Positions 37,894 to 44,447 of a stretch of DNA of 64,000 nt are shown here, one piece after another. Each line of letters starts with the position of its first letter. Within the stretch, counting starts at the first letter, position 1. The stretch is from the sequence record NC_055708.1; one strand, given 5' to 3'. A program made the position numbers and the translations under genes. The stretch is from Enterobacteria phage ATK47. Below the pieces are notes generated by a model. It did no database searches and was not told where the DNA came from. It saw only the letters and a list, made by a program, of their open reading frames with translations.

Positions 37894-38529
37894 ATGAAAA
37901 CTACACCAATCACTATCGCTATTGACGCAATCGTAAAACAAGCTTCTTCTTTGGCTACTATGGCCAAAGTAATTAGTCAAAACCCTGCTCGTTATAATGC
38001 TATTCTAGAAACTCTTCGACGCCCAGGACTTAGTAATTATGAAAGCCGAGTAATTATTACAGGTGTTGGTAAGAATGCTAATATTGCAACTAAAGCTTCT
38101 GAGACATTTGCTTCACTCGGTATCCCAAGTATGTACTTGAACACCGGGCATTATTCTCACGGTGATGCAGGATTCATTGCGCCTAATGATGTGTTGATTC
38201 ATATTAGTCGTTCTGGTAAGACTGAAGAAATGATAGGTGTTGCTAAACATCTTCGTATGATTCGTCCTCAGGTTAAACAGATTCTGTTACATTGTAACCC
38301 TGACATTCCACAAGAATACGAAGCTCTTTTTGATTATACGTTCTGTACCGGTATCGCGGTAGAAGTTGACGAGAACTCTTTAGCTCCGACAATGTCCACT
38401 ACATTGTTGTTAGCGCTTATCGATACGTTCGCTATCAACCTTTCGTCTGAACGCGGATTTACCTCTAATGACTTCCTTAAGTTCCACCCTGGTGGTGCAC
38501 TAGGTGCCATGTTACGAGGCGAGCAATGA
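37894..38529 (+). CDS. SIS-domain sugar-phosphate isomerase (KdsD/GutQ-like arabinose-5-phosphate isomerase candidate)
   Basis: VIITGVGKNANIATKASETF...HISRSGKTEE SIS-type phosphosugar-binding motifs. Confidence 0.65.
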   Translation: MKTTPITIAIDAIVKQASSLATMAKVISQNPARYNAILETLRRPGLSNYESRVIITGVGKNANIATKASETFASLGIPSMYLNTGHYSHGDAGFIAPNDVLIHISRSGKTEEMIGVAKHLRMIRPQVKQILLHCNPDIPQEYEALFDYTFCTGIAVEVDENSLAPTMSTTLLLALIDTFAINLSSERGFTSNDFLKFHPGGALGAMLRGEQ

Positions 38530-38710: not shown

Positions 38711-40396
38711 ATGAAAAAAGCTGTTATTCTTGGTGCTGGACTGGCAACTCGTTTGTATCCAATAACGCATCATATTCCTAAGGTGCTTGTTAACTATAAA
38801 CAAGACACTATTCTGAGCAATTTGTATACAATTTATTCTGACCTTGGCGCAGATGAAATTATTGTAGTAGTTCATTCAAAATTTGCTGAAACTGTTCGAG
38901 CTTATTGCGAGCAAGAAGGGTTCAATGCGACTATTCGTACAGTTGATGAAGCGTATGGTTCTGCTTATGCTCTTGCTAAATTATACAAAGATTTAGATGG
39001 CCATAATGTAATTGTTAACTGGTGTGATATTATTCCTGATTTTGGTTCATGGTCTTGGAATGTTAACGCAATCTATGTTAAGGGTGATGAATGTCGATAT
39101 AATTTCGATGGTGAAAATATCACTAACGTAGGTTCAACAGGCGGTAATGTTGTAGGAATTTATCAGTTCAAAGACTGGGAATTCTACATGGGTTCTACTG
39201 ATGAGGAAATTCACGAATACTGCAAAGGACGTGATTTCGTAGAATTCCTTTACGGCAGTGCATTCAATAAATCAGAGCTTATGAATCTAATTGATTTAGG
39301 TGATATGCCTAAACTTGAAAAAGCTCATGAAGTTCGTGAACTTAATCGTAGTTTTAATGCAGTTGAAATTGGCGAAGAAACTGTAACTAAATTCGCGTTA
39401 ACCGAACAAGGTCGAGCTCTTCAGAAAGATGAGATTTCATGGTATTTGAAAGTGAAATCAGATTCAGTCCCTCAGTTAGTTTCTGTTAATGAAAATAACT
39501 TTGAAATGGAACGTATTAAAGGTAAGCCGGCATTTGAATATATTAAATCCAAATCAAGTCTTGCTCGTCCACAAATTGTTGATGCAATTTTAGATGCACT
39601 GAAATTCAGCACAGACACTTATTTTGTAAGTCCTGAAACTGTTCGCCGTGATTTCACTAAAGAGTTCTATACGAAAGTTATTGATCGTTGTGAAAGCATT
39701 CAGCCATTGATTGATTCATTTGGTAAAATCACACACGTGAACTACACTAAGATTGGACGTCTGAAGCCAATGTTGAAACAAGCTTTAGAACATCTTATTC
39801 GTTATCATAACCGTTCTCAGGGACAGTACTCTGTTATTCACGGTGATCCGAACTTCAGTAATACTATGATTACTGATAACGGCGAAGTCAAGTTTATCGA
39901 CCCTCGTGGATATTTTGGTGAAACCAAGATTTACGGACCAAAATTGTATGATGAAGCTAAAGTGCTTTATGCTGTTTCAGGTTATGATGAATTCAACGCT
40001 AATCCGACCTGGGGCCAGTTTATTATTGATGAAACAACTTGTAATGTGACTATTAACATCAATCCATTAGTTTACAAATATGGAAAGATGAGTTCGTTTA
40101 ACGAGTATCATCATTTGGCAGTAGCAATTATCTGGATTGCATTAGGTGGTTATTTCAAGAATAATCCACTTAAAGCGGTAGCCGCATATTATAAAGGTAT
40201 GGAACTTCTGACTAAGCAATTACGTAACATGGGCCGTGTACTTCAAGATGGCTCTATTAGTTATGACGTAGCAGAACCTGTAACGGCTACTCTGATTACA
40301 AAAAATCCTGGTAAATGGGTACTAACTGATAAAGAAACTGGTGTTTCCTATCGTCCAATCGGTGGCGATATCACTCATCAATGGGAACGAATCTAA
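38711..40396 (+). CDS. Bifunctional sugar-1-phosphate nucleotidyltransferase / APH-fold sugar kinase
   Basis: N-terminal ILGAGLATRLYPIT (RmlA/GlmU-type motif); C-terminal HGDPNFSNTMI...IDPRG (Brenner-type kinase motif). Confidence 0.65.
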   Translation: MKKAVILGAGLATRLYPITHHIPKVLVNYKQDTILSNLYTIYSDLGADEIIVVVHSKFAETVRAYCEQEGFNATIRTVDEAYGSAYALAKLYKDLDGHNVIVNWCDIIPDFGSWSWNVNAIYVKGDECRYNFDGENITNVGSTGGNVVGIYQFKDWEFYMGSTDEEIHEYCKGRDFVEFLYGSAFNKSELMNLIDLGDMPKLEKAHEVRELNRSFNAVEIGEETVTKFALTEQGRALQKDEISWYLKVKSDSVPQLVSVNENNFEMERIKGKPAFEYIKSKSSLARPQIVDAILDALKFSTDTYFVSPETVRRDFTKEFYTKVIDRCESIQPLIDSFGKITHVNYTKIGRLKPMLKQALEHLIRYHNRSQGQYSVIHGDPNFSNTMITDNGEVKFIDPRGYFGETKIYGPKLYDEAKVLYAVSGYDEFNANPTWGQFIIDETTCNVTININPLVYKYGKMSSFNEYHHLAVAIIWIALGGYFKNNPLKAVAAYYKGMELLTKQLRNMGRVLQDGSISYDVAEPVTATLITKNPGKWVLTDKETGVSYRPIGGDITHQWERI

Positions 40397-40782
40397 TGCA
40401 CCGTGTAGAAAACATGCTTAATCTTTGTTTTGATGTCGATGATTGTATAACAGAGTGGAATAACAATCGTGATTATGTGAACTTCAAACCAGACGTCGAA
40501 ATGGTGACCGCCATTAATGCCCTGTATGATGCAGGGCATACCATAACGCTTTACACTGCTCGTGGTATGAAGTCGGTAGGTCCTGGTCGTATAGCAATTG
40601 ACATTCTCCCAAGTCTGATTCAGAACTTGGAAAACATTGGTTTGAAGTACCATAATTTGCTAACACATAAACCAGTATATGATTGGATTATCGACGACAA
40701 AGCTATGCGTCCTGACGAATTCAAAGCTCTTATGAATAAAGGCGAATTCGAAACATTTAAATCGTATAAACCGAATCTATAA
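40396..40782 (+). CDS. HAD-like phosphatase candidate
   Basis: N-terminal FDVDDCIT (DxD motif); TAATG overlap with upstream gene. Confidence 0.45.
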   Translation: MHRVENMLNLCFDVDDCITEWNNNRDYVNFKPDVEMVTAINALYDAGHTITLYTARGMKSVGPGRIAIDILPSLIQNLENIGLKYHNLLTHKPVYDWIIDDKAMRPDEFKALMNKGEFETFKSYKPNL

Positions 40783-40833: not shown

Positions 40834-42003
40834 ATGCAAAAAATGAATACTTTTAAAATCGGAACGAATTTTGATTTAGCTCTTCTTGATAAAATCGTAG
40901 AGCTCAATAAAACTTATCCTAATAGCTTGATAAATGAAGTATACGGCTCTACAAGAGAAATGGCTTTTGTAGCAGCCAGACCTGATTTTAGGCTTCCTGA
41001 CGTTGACAAAAAGATGTTAGAAGACTACGTTAAACGTTGTAACGAATTAGGTATTTGCTTTAACTATACACTCAACACGATAAATCCTGGTTCAAAAAGA
41101 GAACTAGTTGAGTGGAAGAAGAAAGCTATTCAGGATTATGTTCAGTATCTTTGGTCAATAGGCGTATGGCGTATTACTATCGCTAACCCTGTTGTTATGG
41201 AAATTGTTCGTGAAGTCAATAAAGACATTGAGATTGAAGTTTCAACAATTCTACATGTTGATGCTGTAACTCAAATCAAATACTTGCACGACCAATATAA
41301 CATCAAAAAAGTCTGTTGCGGAATTCATAAGAACCGTTCAGTTTCTTTCCTGAAGCGTGCAGCAGAGTTTTGCAATAAGAACAATATAATATTTGAAGTT
41401 CTTGTAAATGAGTTCTGTTCTAATGCTGGTAAAGGGTATACAACACATTGTAGCTATCGTGACTCTTGCTATATTTTCCATAGTACTGATGTTACCGCTG
41501 ATGATGCTAAATCCTTAAATGGATATCCTATGCAGCACTGTATTAAAGCTCGTGATACAGACCCATTTAACTGGCTGAGAACTCGTTTTGTTCGTCCTCA
41601 AGATTTGAAACTTTATAATGATATTGGTATCACTCAATTCAAAGTTTCAGGACGTACAGGTAGCACAGACTACATTTTGAAAGTTCTTGAAGCATACGCT
41701 TCTGAAAAGTTTGAAGGTAATTTGTTAGAACTGTGGAAGCCTTTAGAGACTATTTTCACTCTTGAAAATGAGACTGAGTTTTCACATACAGTAAATATTG
41801 AAACCTCATTGTTAGACGGTTTTTTAGAAAAAAGGTGGTTCAGACATCCAGATTTCGATTGTGCTAATGAAATCTGCGGGACGACGTGTACATATTGTGA
41901 AAGATATTATAAACGTCAGTTATCTAAAAATGGGTTATCAGAAAACTCTATATCTATTATTGATATAACTAACTCTGATGACGCTTTGAGGTACCCGGAA
42001 TGA
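40834..42003 (+). CDS. U32-family (collagenase-like) protein, possible Fe-S enzyme
   Basis: Block similarity to U32 proteins (ANPVVMEIVREV..IEIEVS; FEVLVNEFCSNAGKGYTTHCSY); Cys cluster. Confidence 0.45.
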   Translation: MQKMNTFKIGTNFDLALLDKIVELNKTYPNSLINEVYGSTREMAFVAARPDFRLPDVDKKMLEDYVKRCNELGICFNYTLNTINPGSKRELVEWKKKAIQDYVQYLWSIGVWRITIANPVVMEIVREVNKDIEIEVSTILHVDAVTQIKYLHDQYNIKKVCCGIHKNRSVSFLKRAAEFCNKNNIIFEVLVNEFCSNAGKGYTTHCSYRDSCYIFHSTDVTADDAKSLNGYPMQHCIKARDTDPFNWLRTRFVRPQDLKLYNDIGITQFKVSGRTGSTDYILKVLEAYASEKFEGNLLELWKPLETIFTLENETEFSHTVNIETSLLDGFLEKRWFRHPDFDCANEICGTTCTYCERYYKRQLSKNGLSENSISIIDITNSDDALRYPE

Positions 42004-42239
42004 TTTCTAGAAAAACTTTTAACCACCAACTTAATGAAGAGATTTTGACTATAAAACTGAACACTAACGAACAAATTCTTAAAAAGGCCCTTATGGGCCT
42101 GTTTGAAACCAAAGCGGCTAAAGTGATTAAAGAACCTGTTCAATTGGAATACTACACTGATGCATTCCTTCATAGTGTTCTTGGAAGTATAGATTCTGAA
42201 GCTTTACGTTATATCAACATTGCCAAGAAATTCAAATAA
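42000..42239 (+). CDS. Hypothetical protein
   Basis: ATGA overlap. Confidence 0.35.
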   Translation: MISRKTFNHQLNEEILTIKLNTNEQILKKALMGLFETKAAKVIKEPVQLEYYTDAFLHSVLGSIDSEALRYINIAKKFK

Positions 42240-42281: not shown

Positions 42282-42998
42282 ATGGGAAAACATAACACAA
42301 TGAAATATATCAAAGCCGCAGATTTTCAAGCCGCATTTAAAGCAGTCAATCGTGAAATTTTAGAAAATCCTGAATTCGTAACTGATTCTCGTATTGGACG
42401 TTGTAATGAAATCGGGTCCATGACAGTAGTTGTTGACAATCCATCATCATTCAAAATGACCGACCCACGTATTAACCGCATCTCTTATGAATATGCCGAA
42501 GACTTCTGGAAGTTTATGATTTCTGGTGGTACTGATGCAGAAGAAGCGTTTAAGGCATATCCTAATGTCGCTAAATTTATTTCTAAACCTAAATCAGACG
42601 CTTTGCCGGCGAACTTCAACACTTTCTATGGTCCTCGCATTGCGGCCCAATTACCAGCTCTTCTAAAAGAACTTAAAGAGAAACCTAACTCTCGAAGAGT
42701 TGTGTTCCAAATTCTAGAAAGTTCTGATCAGGCTTTGCTTGATTCGGACGAAACACTTGAATATCCATGTACTGACTCAGTGACTTATTATATTCGCGAT
42801 GGTAAGCTTTATACCCACTGTCATATGCGTTCTCAGAACTGTGCTGTTGTTATGCAGTTGGATTTTTATCTCCAAGGAAAATTACTTCATTATATCGCTA
42901 ACGAATGCGGCGTAGAAGTTGGTGATTATACTCATACCATGGTAAGTGCCCATGTGTTTGAACGTGATTTTGATTATGTTAAAGGATTCCTTGACTAA
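42282..42998 (+). CDS. 42: Thymidylate-synthase-fold pyrimidine hydroxymethylase (gp42-like dCMP hydroxymethylase, divergent)
   Basis: YPCTDSVTYYIRDGKLYTHCHMRSQNCAVVMQLDF resembles the catalytic Cys region of the TS/dCMP-hydroxymethylase family; position between 43 and uvsX. Confidence 0.6.
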   Translation: MGKHNTMKYIKAADFQAAFKAVNREILENPEFVTDSRIGRCNEIGSMTVVVDNPSSFKMTDPRINRISYEYAEDFWKFMISGGTDAEEAFKAYPNVAKFISKPKSDALPANFNTFYGPRIAAQLPALLKELKEKPNSRRVVFQILESSDQALLDSDETLEYPCTDSVTYYIRDGKLYTHCHMRSQNCAVVMQLDFYLQGKLLHYIANECGVEVGDYTHTMVSAHVFERDFDYVKGFLD

Positions 42999-43897
42999 TG
43001 GCTATTTTCCGCGTACCAATCTTGAGTATGCGGTCTTATGAAACTGGACAGTATGCTATCCTTAAGGATGGCAACTTCCAACTTCATTTGCACCGTGCTA
43101 ATCCAGGTGATGTGATTACATATCCACGTAATGCATCTGATATTAAAGAATGTGAACGTCTTTTCCCGGAATTTAAGTTTGTTCCATTATGGTATAAAGA
43201 TAACGCGTATAACACTCGTAAATATTTCTGGTCTGAAAATGAATTTGTGGTTGATTCATTAATTGCTTATTATGATTGTGATTTTCTAATAACAGATATC
43301 ACTGGATATGACGGCGCTTTTGATGTAGAATTCAATTTCAATATCACTGCAGACCCTAATAAACCACGTTTTTATATTGATGAATTCTTAAAAACCGATA
43401 TGTTGTCGGTTAATCGTTCACTTCAAACTACTGTGTTGAATGAACGTCAAAAAGAAGTGCTGGTTAACGCCGGTGCAGATGGTAATAAGATTATCGTAAC
43501 GCAGAAAGTTATACGTCCTTCCATCATGCAGCGTCTTGTAGGTGATTTGGCTCCTATTCATGTAGATGGTATTTTTCATCCATTTCGAATTAGTGATCCG
43601 TGTTATCATTTTGAACAAGTGGTTGAATGTGCAATTCAATTAGGTCAACCGCTTTATATAACTGATCCAAATAATAGCTTTGACAGAAATAAGTATCCTG
43701 AAGAAGCGCTGATTCGAATTTTTAAACCAACTAAAACTGAGTACTATCAAATTCTTAAAGGACGTCCGAAGATTCAATATTTCGAAAATCCTGAAGAAGT
43801 ATTCCATCCAGGTCTTGGTGAGTTCATCTACTTTAATGCTTTAATTTCTTCGCCGTATAATATACCTAAATACGAAGATGTCGTAATCGAGGAATAA
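42998..43897 (+). CDS. Hypothetical protein, 299 aa (occupies the T4 beta-gt position)
   Basis: ATGA overlap with the gp42-like gene; no recognisable motif. Confidence 0.4.
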   Translation: MAIFRVPILSMRSYETGQYAILKDGNFQLHLHRANPGDVITYPRNASDIKECERLFPEFKFVPLWYKDNAYNTRKYFWSENEFVVDSLIAYYDCDFLITDITGYDGAFDVEFNFNITADPNKPRFYIDEFLKTDMLSVNRSLQTTVLNERQKEVLVNAGADGNKIIVTQKVIRPSIMQRLVGDLAPIHVDGIFHPFRISDPCYHFEQVVECAIQLGQPLYITDPNNSFDRNKYPEEALIRIFKPTKTEYYQILKGRPKIQYFENPEEVFHPGLGEFIYFNALISSPYNIPKYEDVVIEE

Positions 43898-43898
43898 A

Positions 43899-44447
43899 AT
43901 GGCTAAAATTATTTTAGTAGATGGCCCAGATAATGCTGGTAAAACAACTTTCATTAATGACATAATGGAAATTAGTGAAAGATATGTAAAGATTGATTTC
44001 CCTAAACGAACAGTTGATGGACGTTTCGATGTTAAGTCTCGAAATGAAGTTGGCTGTTTCGAAACGATGTTGAATTATTTAGACCCTACTAAGATTTATC
44101 TGTTAGACCGTGGATATATTAGTAACTGGGTTTATGGACGTATTCGACAAGATGCGGACTCGGTTCTTGACGTTTATGAACAGGACTATGTTCGTCTTTG
44201 CCAAAACCATGATGTGTTCACAATTATTTTAACACGTAACGAAATGACTGAAAGTTTTGAAGACGACCTTATTACTTTGTCTTCATTCGGTTTTAATACA
44301 GTCATTTCACATTTTGAAGAGTTTGCAATTCATAACAAAATCCAAACGTATCAATTACTTAATCATGATGGTGCTAACAAAGTTATAGGATTTAATGCAA
44401 GCGAACGTAATTATTTGATTACAGAAATTATCAAATGGGCTCGTTAA
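43899..44447 (+). CDS. P-loop nucleotide/nucleoside kinase-like protein
   Basis: Walker A GPDNAGKTT; DRGY motif. Confidence 0.5.
   Translation: MAKIILVDGPDNAGKTTFINDIMEISERYVKIDFPKRTVDGRFDVKSRNEVGCFETMLNYLDPTKIYLLDRGYISNWVYGRIRQDADSVLDVYEQDYVRLCQNHDVFTIILTRNEMTESFEDDLITLSSFGFNTVISHFEEFAIHNKIQTYQLLNHDGANKVIGFNASERNYLITEIIKWAR

Follow-up and report, generated by a model that had tools for sequence, protein, structure and literature searches.

The subject of this work is a gene located in a stretch of 64,000 nucleotides of the genome of Enterobacteria phage ATK47 (NC_055708.1), hereafter the window. Its open reading frame (ORF; 40834..42003, plus strand) encodes a 389-amino-acid (aa) protein of the U32 family, which proves to be, by sequence comparison, the orthologue of RB69 gp50 (RB69ORF050c). 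We suggest that this protein, for which the name gp50 is used in the following, might be an O2-independent, prephenate-dependent C5-hydroxylase of deoxycytidine monophosphate (dCMP) or of DNA cytosine, acting as a back-up of the O2-dependent 5-hydroxy-dCMP (5hodCMP) synthase encoded by the same gene cassette; in our judgement, this proposal could still fall either way. It starts from the family membership of the protein, its fold, the conservation of its cysteines, the linkage of its gene and the phylogenetic profile, from which we infer that the protein is a hydroxylase, that it uses prephenate, which substrate it acts on and that it serves as a back-up under anaerobic conditions. The gene and its similarity to U32 proteins were already known: a table published in 2006 gave the U32 match of RB69ORF050c (PMC1524935), a survey of 2021 placed the gene among those presumed to act in arabinosylation (PMC8056088), and Lee et al. 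in 2026 entered gp50 in their Table 1, without experiment, as a “sugar or heterocycle reductase”, in a paper where chorismate, prephenate and TrhP are nowhere mentioned (PMC13326640). These papers deal with the same gene and offer no mechanism; what is new here is the linkage with the genes for chorismate mutase (CM) and for 3-deoxy-D-arabino-heptulosonate 7-phosphate (DAHP) synthase, together with its mechanistic reading. In the searchable literature, no link between phage U32 proteins and prephenate, chorismate mutase, TrhP/RlhA or anaerobiosis was found, and two recent relevant papers lying outside that scope could hold contrary or pre-empting data.

The gene is 100% identical to that of Enterobacteria phage ATK48 and shares 98.3% nucleotide identity with RB69ORF050c, so that the window can be assigned to a Mosigvirus, i.e., to a T4-like phage. 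The identity of the protein to its orthologues in other genera is 81-89%, at a nucleotide identity of 71-78%, and the ratio of non-synonymous to synonymous substitution rates (dN/dS) is 0.03-0.06 in those comparisons with other genera where dS is unsaturated; the U32 gene is, thus, real and under strong purifying selection. An original prediction, made from the DNA sequence alone, had assigned the product to the U32 family on account of block-wise similarity, and this assignment is borne out by profile searches and by the fold. Indeed, the Pfam model PF01136 (Peptidase_U32) matches aa 97-289 with E=7.4e-11 and 42.2 bits, well above the gathering score of 22.4, and the same model gives only 38.3 bits with the genuine UbiV of E. 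coli, the two proteins being equally divergent from it. When the profile of the phage family was aligned by hhalign to the E. coli paralogues UbiU, UbiV, TrhP and RlhA taken together, a probability of 98.5% (E=2.6e-14) was obtained; with the single paralogues, RlhA was the best match (97.6%, E=3.7e-12) and TrhP the second (96.4%, E=1.4e-9), followed by UbiU (E=4.5e-7), UbiV not being significant. The structure model of gp50 exhibits a TIM-barrel fold matching MK0906 (PDB 5d88), the only solved U32 structure that was matched. MK0906 shares 14% sequence identity with gp50 and consists of a 247-aa core that lacks both the Cys-rich insertion and the C-terminal Cys4 region of the phage protein. A phmmer search of gp50 against the PDB sequences returned no U32 chain (the best match, an unrelated one, had E about 1), and the UbiU equivalog model NCBIfam NF047963 gave 18.4 bits, the cutoff being 440; the relation of gp50 to the U32 family is detectable only via profile or fold. 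The stretches that the original prediction had quoted are found at aa 117-137 (ANPVVMEIVREV...IEIEVS, in the TIM-barrel region) and at aa 187-208 (the cysteine-containing FEVLVNEFCSNAGKGYTTHCSY), and the further cysteines that it had placed at the C-terminus are four in number, at positions 343/348/352/355.

Ten cysteines are kept among the close homologues of gp50. The putative ligands of a [4Fe-4S] cluster, C195, C206, C212 and C236, whose conservation had been recommended as a check of the family assignment, are invariant in 111-121 close homologues, and the same is true for C343, C348, C352 and C355. In a more distant set of 123 representatives (27-50% identity), C195 is conserved in 99%, C206 and C236 in 100%, and position 212 is occupied by Cys in 62% and by His in 37%, an alternation of the kind that is typical of a metal ligand and that might point to such a role here. 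The four C-terminal cysteines are kept in 93-94% of the same distant set, and the site is absent at the equivalent position in E. coli TrhP, RlhA, UbiU and UbiV; judging from these alignments, the C-x4-C-x3-C-x2-C site is clade-specific. The profile alignment pairs gp50 C206/C212/C236 with RlhA C169/C176/C196. Residues C169/C176 of RlhA and C170/C177 of TrhP are essential in vivo (PMC6599085), and both essential cysteines of the U32 signature E-x-F-x2-G-x2-C-x4-G-x-C are matched by C206 and C212, with a spacing C-x5-C versus the canonical C-x6-C. A conserved glutamate lies upstream of C206, either E188 or E193 (each in about 73-75% of the distant members), and is a candidate for E161/E162. Concerning the remaining anatomy, the only Pfam domain detected in gp50 is PF01136; the C-terminal accessory domains found in the RNA enzymes of E. 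coli, U32_C in TrhP and DUF3656 in RlhA, are lacking. The protein ends with a DDxxRYPE tail (aa 382-389), which is conserved in 12 T4-like genera and disordered in the model, with a predicted local distance difference test (pLDDT) score below 50 for aa 385-389, and before which the non-T4 homologues of about 360 aa stop short; the tail may represent a short motif through which a partner protein is docked.

When 50,697 phage records were searched by tblastn, the U32 gene was detected in 220 of them, all the matches showing at least 80% identity and none falling below this value. The gene following it is annotated as a chorismate mutase in two of the 220 records. We inspected ten phages, i.e., Virsaitis27, KLB31, CIP9, PEi26, PM2, TG1, phiP4-3, PSTRCR_121, P545 and Thanatos-2, which represent at least seven named T4-like genera plus an unclassified Shewanella phage (Thanatos-2), none of them being a Mosigvirus and all of them having a small ORF at this place. 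In all ten, the small ORF matches the Pfam model CM_2 (32.8-46.3 bits, gathering score 27) and follows U32 either immediately or with no more than two tiny ORFs in between; the NCBIfam chorismate-mutase models also match these proteins, yet below their curated cutoffs. In Thanatos-2, the cassette is rearranged and the U32 gene lies away from the synthase; yet the U32 and CM genes are still adjacent, with overlapping stop and start codons. Among 15 T4-like IMG/VR loci harboring the U32 gene, a chorismate mutase gene is adjacent to it in 13, and the synthase homologue is present in all 15. The phage chorismate mutase occurs, in turn, in 51 of the 50,697 records, where the features annotated under the matches are the thymidylate-synthase-homologue or the U32 gene of the cassette; all these matches belong to genera that also carry U32, and the counts per genus mirror those of the U32 gene. 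Klebsiella phage Marfa (L012, 4164-4208) shows a different arrangement, with the synthase homologue following U32 after 44 nucleotides and no chorismate mutase between them; it represents a second, independent loss of the CM gene, which is retained by the related Marfavirus P545. As a separate observation, the HAD phosphatase gene is separated from U32 by an inserted gene for a Seg-type homing endonuclease in Virsaitis27 (L004, 5352-5990) and PEi26 (L016, 2352-2990).

In the window, the slot occupied in other genera by the 79-aa chorismate mutase is filled by a different ORF, likewise of 79 aa, which begins with the same overlap of its start with the stop codon of U32. A six-frame search of the 64-kb window detected no chorismate mutase elsewhere. 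The idea that the 79-aa ORF might be a cryptic chorismate mutase was considered and discarded: it has no Pfam CM_2 match, it scores 0.9 bits with a hidden Markov model (HMM) of the phage chorismate mutases and 0.3% probability by hhalign, and it shares no nucleotide homology with the CM genes of the relatives, both flanks being alignable. Its single-sequence AlphaFold2 model is poor (pLDDT 64, three helices). The comparison of the loci indicates a like-for-like swap of the chorismate mutase for an unrelated ORF, specific to Mosigviruses.

A linkage with shikimate genes recurs independently in phages unrelated to T4. The first step of the shikimate pathway is catalyzed by DAHP synthase, whereas chorismate mutase yields prephenate. 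An HMMER scan of 1.84 billion representatives retrieved 1,185 clusters at E<=1e-3 and, with the stricter threshold of E<=1e-30, 114 clusters, which implies a sizeable and distinct U32 clade; clustered at 50% identity, the latter amounts to about 1,200 clusters, and it is characterized by the signature C-x(3-10)-C-x5-[CH]-x23-C + C-x4-C-x3-C-x2-C. Homologues of 44-58% identity are plentiful in metagenomes, where the phage contigs that carry them reach 466 kb; many of these contigs are low in GC, and several encode a DnaE-type polymerase. A type I-beta DAHP synthase gene is located immediately after U32 in locus L020 (237 bits versus 63 for 3-deoxy-D-manno-octulosonate 8-phosphate synthase); the U32 stop codon is overlapped by a DAHP synthase gene in L038 and by a fused DAHP synthase-chorismate mutase gene in L063, and a fused chorismate mutase-DAHP synthase is encoded one gene upstream of U32 in L050 and L052/053. 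Taken together, a DAHP synthase or a CM-DAHP synthase fusion is linked to U32 in 4 of the 21 dereplicated non-T4 IMG/VR loci and in L020, that is, in five lineages. Around the metagenomic U32 loci L001-L003 and L019-L021, neither a phage-type chorismate mutase nor a thymidylate-synthase homologue was found over 8-10 kb, and the U32 loci of the non-T4 phages likewise showed no thymidylate-synthase homologue over this distance. The other neighbors of the non-T4 U32 genes include dCMP deaminase, dUTPase/MazG, thymidylate-kinase-like kinases, uracil-DNA glycosylase, SIS proteins, nucleotidyltransferase-kinase fusions and DnaE polymerase. The dCMP deaminase gene lies upstream of U32 in two large-phage loci and overlaps its start in L001, a 466-kb JGI contig. 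Such a neighborhood is compatible with a hydroxylase acting at the nucleotide level.

The distribution of the gene among phages was compared with that of the synthase. Every host genus listed for the 220 U32 records is enterobacterial or Shewanella, i.e., a facultative anaerobe. The synthase homologue is found in 372 phage records, including those of 57 Acinetobacter and 20 Rhizobium phages. In the Acinetobacter and Pseudomonas cassettes that we inspected, one phage each (fHyAci03 and PspYZU05, respectively), the HAD gene abuts the synthase gene, and the missing block corresponds exactly to U32 plus CM. The Acinetobacter phage DLP3 produces tri-arabinosyl-5-hydroxycytosine (5hoC) and has no U32 gene in its cluster (PMC13326640); hence, the U32 gene is dispensable for the sugar chemistry.

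How these observations might fit together can be outlined as follows. The base of RB69 DNA is arabosyl-5-hydroxycytosine and not arabinosyl-hydroxymethylcytosine, and gp48, the thymidylate-synthase homologue, binds flavin and synthesizes 5-hydroxy-dCMP with oxygen derived from O2, as revealed by 18O2 labelling (PMC13326640). According to our proposal, gp50, a divergent and virus-specific representative of the U32 TIM-barrel Fe-S enzymes, would be an O2-independent hydroxylase receiving the oxygen atom from prephenate, and it would hydroxylate C5 of dCMP or, less likely, of cytosine residues of the DNA. The 5-hydroxy group would then provide the attachment point of arabinose when the O2/flavin-dependent gp48 fails, for instance in the anoxic gut. 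The electrons of the substrate might exit via the [4Fe-4S] cluster (C195/C206/C212/C236), and possibly via the second Cys4 site (C343-C355), to an acceptor. In most of the related genera, prephenate would be provided by the phage chorismate mutase encoded immediately downstream; since this enzyme has been replaced in Mosigviruses, prephenate would have to come from the host PheA/TyrA. The strict use of O2 by gp48 gives an O2-free alternative a selective rationale, as for the TrhO/TrhP and UbiIHF/UbiUV couples.

The original prediction had pointed to the U32 proteins involved in O2-independent hydroxylation (RlhA, TrhP, UbiU/UbiV), and this lead is strengthened by the CM and DAHP synthase neighbors found in many phages. 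Indeed, 18O labelling has identified prephenate as the oxygen donor of UbiU/V, and the chorismate-mutase domain of PheA alone restores their function (PMC10990095). TrhP, responsible for tRNA ho5U34, and RlhA, responsible for rRNA ho5C2501, likewise require prephenate (PMC6599085), which might, thus, be the oxygen source for these two enzymes as well. RlhA (YdcP), the 5-hydroxycytidine synthase of E. coli 23S rRNA C2501, shares with gp50 the U32 TIM-barrel domain and represents the prephenate-dependent, O2-independent hydroxylation of cytosine C5 that we propose for the phage protein (PMC6599085). However, the two share about 20% sequence identity; RlhA is a 653-aa protein with a DUF3656 domain and a ribosomal target, whereas gp50 has 389 aa, a Cys4 C-terminus and no DUF3656, and its proposed substrate is a deoxynucleotide or DNA. 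TrhP (YegQ) and TrhO offer a template for the gp50/gp48 couple, given that a prephenate-dependent U32 enzyme and an O2-dependent one redundantly make one C5-hydroxypyrimidine (PMC6599085), a redundancy that in the phage would be hypothetical. TrhP differs from gp50 in its U32_C domain and RNA substrate, and the O2-dependent partner is a rhodanese in the TrhO pathway and a flavin-binding thymidylate-synthase homologue in the phage. Lastly, UbiU and UbiV, Fe-S proteins that hydroxylate ubiquinone independently of O2, resemble gp50 in being U32 proteins without RNA-binding domains, and their substrate is a small molecule; they form, however, a heterodimer working with UbiT, whereas gp50 consists of one chain, in which two Cys4 sites are conserved, and the substrates differ.

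Several points weigh against the idea that gp50 hydroxylates cytosine at the expense of prephenate. The window has no chorismate mutase, so that the key linkage has to be borrowed from its relatives. The E. coli Dhakaviruses have the synthase and lack the U32 gene, so that the host profile is one-sided and does not represent a strict correlation. The assignment of the [4Fe-4S] ligands of gp50 comes from the sequence, and the canonical third cysteine of the four-Cys U32 motif (Cys192 in RlhA) is not positionally kept, although the additional, invariant C195 may act as its substitute. Besides, in vitro hydroxylation has not yet been demonstrated for any U32 protein (PMC10990095), the label “sugar or heterocycle reductase” given by Lee et al. 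(PMC13326640) suggests another activity, and the substrate that we attribute to gp50, be it dCMP, DNA or something else, is pure conjecture.

The last two points lead to a first alternative, according to which a prephenate-dependent U32 enzyme would act on a target other than cytosine, such as arabinose or NDP-arabinose or some other small molecule, or would be that “sugar or heterocycle reductase”. We consider it rather unlikely. The U32 gene does lie between sugar-activation genes and a base-modifying gene, its non-T4 relatives adjoin epimerase/reductase-like, SIS and nucleotidyltransferase genes, and the entry in the table of Lee et al. goes in the same direction. However, DLP3 arabinosylates 5hoC without a U32 protein, U32 is also missing from the cassettes of Dhakaviruses and of the Pseudomonas phage, and no extra chemical feature of RB69 DNA requiring such a step has been reported. 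The known U32-linked reactions are hydroxylations at carbon atoms of aromatic or heteroaromatic rings, in two cases at the C5 of a pyrimidine (PMC10990095, PMC6599085), and a dCMP deaminase gene lies upstream of U32 in two large-phage loci, overlapping its start in one of them. The original prediction had conceived a base- or sugar-modifying role: the former part can be retained, whereas the latter is disfavored by the phages that make the same arabinosylated base without U32.

It is also conceivable, although improbable in our opinion, that gp50 hydroxylates RNA in the manner of TrhP or RlhA, forming ho5U34 in tRNA or ho5C in rRNA during infection and tuning translation, and that its location in the cassette is accidental. 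RlhA and TrhP are in fact the closest E. coli paralogues by profile, and their prephenate dependence (PMC6599085) would account equally well for the CM linkage. This scenario has to face the absence of U32_C and DUF3656 from gp50 and its different, Cys4-containing C-terminus, and the fact that the host is already equipped with TrhP, TrhO and RlhA. Moreover, the gene always lies within DNA-precursor or sugar modules, both in T4-like and in unrelated phages, and is restricted to phages with the 5hoC cassette.

A third model, in which gp50 would be an accessory redox partner supplying the 5hodCMP synthase with reduced flavin or electrons via an Fe-S cluster and not a hydroxylase, appears very improbable. 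In its favor, the synthase requires a flavin cofactor (PMC13326640), the up to two conserved Cys4 sites would be suited to electron transfer, and U32 and synthase are near neighbors in 15 of the 15 T4-like loci. On the other hand, the synthase functions in E. coli when gp50 is absent (PMC13326640), many phages possess the synthase and no gp50, the U32 clade of non-T4 phages has no synthase homologue nearby, and the U32 and CM genes of Thanatos-2 have stayed together at a distance from the synthase. The model would also leave the linkage with CM and DAHP synthase unexplained. Finally, a true peptidase or collagenase activity of gp50, as the “peptidase”, “collagenase-like protease” or “putative protease” of most GenBank records would have it, can practically be dismissed, in that these annotations derive solely from the name of the family, U32 “peptidases” have no defined catalytic residues, the characterized members are tied to hydroxylation and not to proteolysis (PMC10990095, PMC6599085), the conserved features are Cys clusters amid nucleotide, sugar and shikimate genes, and the gene is not placed with those for head maturation or lysis.

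If the proposed prephenate-dependent hydroxylation of cytosine by gp50 is correct, the same DNA hypermodification would be reached by two interchangeable routes, one using O2 and the other prephenate. This would be the third case of aerobic/anaerobic duplication after TrhO/TrhP and UbiIHF/UbiUV, the first viral one and the first acting on DNA precursors. It would also account for the replication in the anoxic gut of RB69-type phages, in which dCTP is destroyed and cytosine is entirely replaced, and it would predict oxygen-dependent differences in host range or fitness between Mosigviruses (with U32) and Dhakaviruses (without it), relevant to phage therapy cocktails. A soluble mononucleotide substrate, if true, would give the first tractable in vitro system for U32/prephenate chemistry and, combined with a dedicated chorismate mutase, would make the hypothesis of prephenate as an oxygen donor directly testable. 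We extend the idea to the whole U32 clade only tentatively, with less confidence than for gp50 itself: its members might be virus-specific, prephenate-dependent deoxypyrimidine C5-hydroxylases, representing the anoxic twin of the 5hodCMP synthase in the T4-like phages of facultative anaerobes and the only hydroxylase in the large phages without a thymidylate-synthase homologue nearby. In such a case, a large and unrecognized reservoir of glycosylated hydroxy-pyrimidine DNA would exist; many large phages would be flagged as likely carriers of uncharacterized hydroxy-pyrimidine DNA modifications.

The location of the U32 gene within a DNA-modification cassette, as stated by the original prediction, was confirmed, since co-oriented sugar-activation and base-modifying genes flank it on the two sides (Table 1). 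The whole block is co-oriented, lies downstream of the DNA polymerase gene (gp43) and has UvsX as its last member. The neighbor that the original prediction had called a dCMP hydroxymethylase is, instead, the published flavin/O2-dependent 5-hydroxy-dCMP synthase (PMC13326640), the chemistry of the cassette having been revised in 2026, so that the former name is a mislabel. A scan for promoters and terminators around the cassette found 22 versus 26.7 expected from shuffles, i.e., no excess.

Table 1. Features of the modification cassette and of the U32 gene in the window.
Feature	Coordinates	Strand	Basis or remarks
SIS arabinose-5-phosphate isomerase	37894..38529	+	Pfam SIS; role from PMC13326640
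Bifunctional nucleotidyltransferase/kinase, 561 aa	38711..40396	+	Pfam NTP_transferase; role from PMC13326640
HAD-type phosphatase	40381..40782	+	role from PMC13326640
U32-family protein, RB69 gp50 orthologue, 389 aa	40834..42003	+	ORF, Pfam, hhalign, structure model
Peptidase_U32 Pfam domain, portion of the TIM barrel	41122..41700	+	aa 97-289
Cys-rich segment C195-x10-C206-x5-C212-x23-C236, putative [4Fe-4S] ligands	41416..41541	+	conservation, profile alignment
C343-x4-C348-x3-C352-x2-C355, second putative metal (Fe-S or Zn) site	41860..41898	+	conservation
Extreme C-terminal tail DDxxRYPE, T4-like members only	41977..42000	+	alignment of 12 T4-like genera
79-aa ORF, RB69 gp49 orthologue, phrog_8601	42000..42239	+	start overlaps U32 stop codon
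Thymidylate-synthase homologue, RB69 gp48 orthologue	42282..42998	+	Pfam Thymidylat_synt; function from PMC13326640
Arabinosyltransferase 1, 299 aa, RB69 gp46:47	42998..43897	+	role from PMC13326640, Table 1
Thymidylate-kinase-like nucleotide kinase, RB69 gp45	43899..44447	+	role from PMC13326640, Table 1

Two of the cassette genes, coding for the 561-aa nucleotidyltransferase/kinase and for the 299-aa glycosyltransferase, are intact in the window and split in the RB69 reference (ORF052/053 and ORF046/047, respectively); the intact ORFs agree with the interpretation, already in print, that the splits in RB69 arose from errors in sequencing.

Further observations concern the modules surrounding the U32 gene outside the typical T4-like cassette. 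Besides the neighbors already named, the modules of the large, low-GC phages L001, L002, L020, L038, L050, L053 and L063, taken as a group, include epimerase-like and glycosyltransferase-like genes, and they look like uncharacterized hydroxy-pyrimidine glycosylation systems; in one large-phage locus, the Pfam hints are only sub-threshold (GT-B-like QTMAN_N, 20.4 bits; epimerase, 15.2 bits). The commonest neighbor family within 3 kb of U32 in the 21 non-T4 IMG/VR loci (L038-L066) is the RimK-type ATP-grasp (6 of 137 ORFs), whose members also match “sugar-transfer associated ATP-grasp”, which hints at the ligation of an amino acid onto the modification in some non-T4 phages. In L021 (NCBI MAG contig JBINNZ010007339.1), probably a T4-like phage as it encodes a T4-type DsbA, the U32 gene follows those for an epimerase and a UDP-galactopyranose mutase (GLF), which suggests a variant with a galactofuranosyl instead of an arabinosyl modification.

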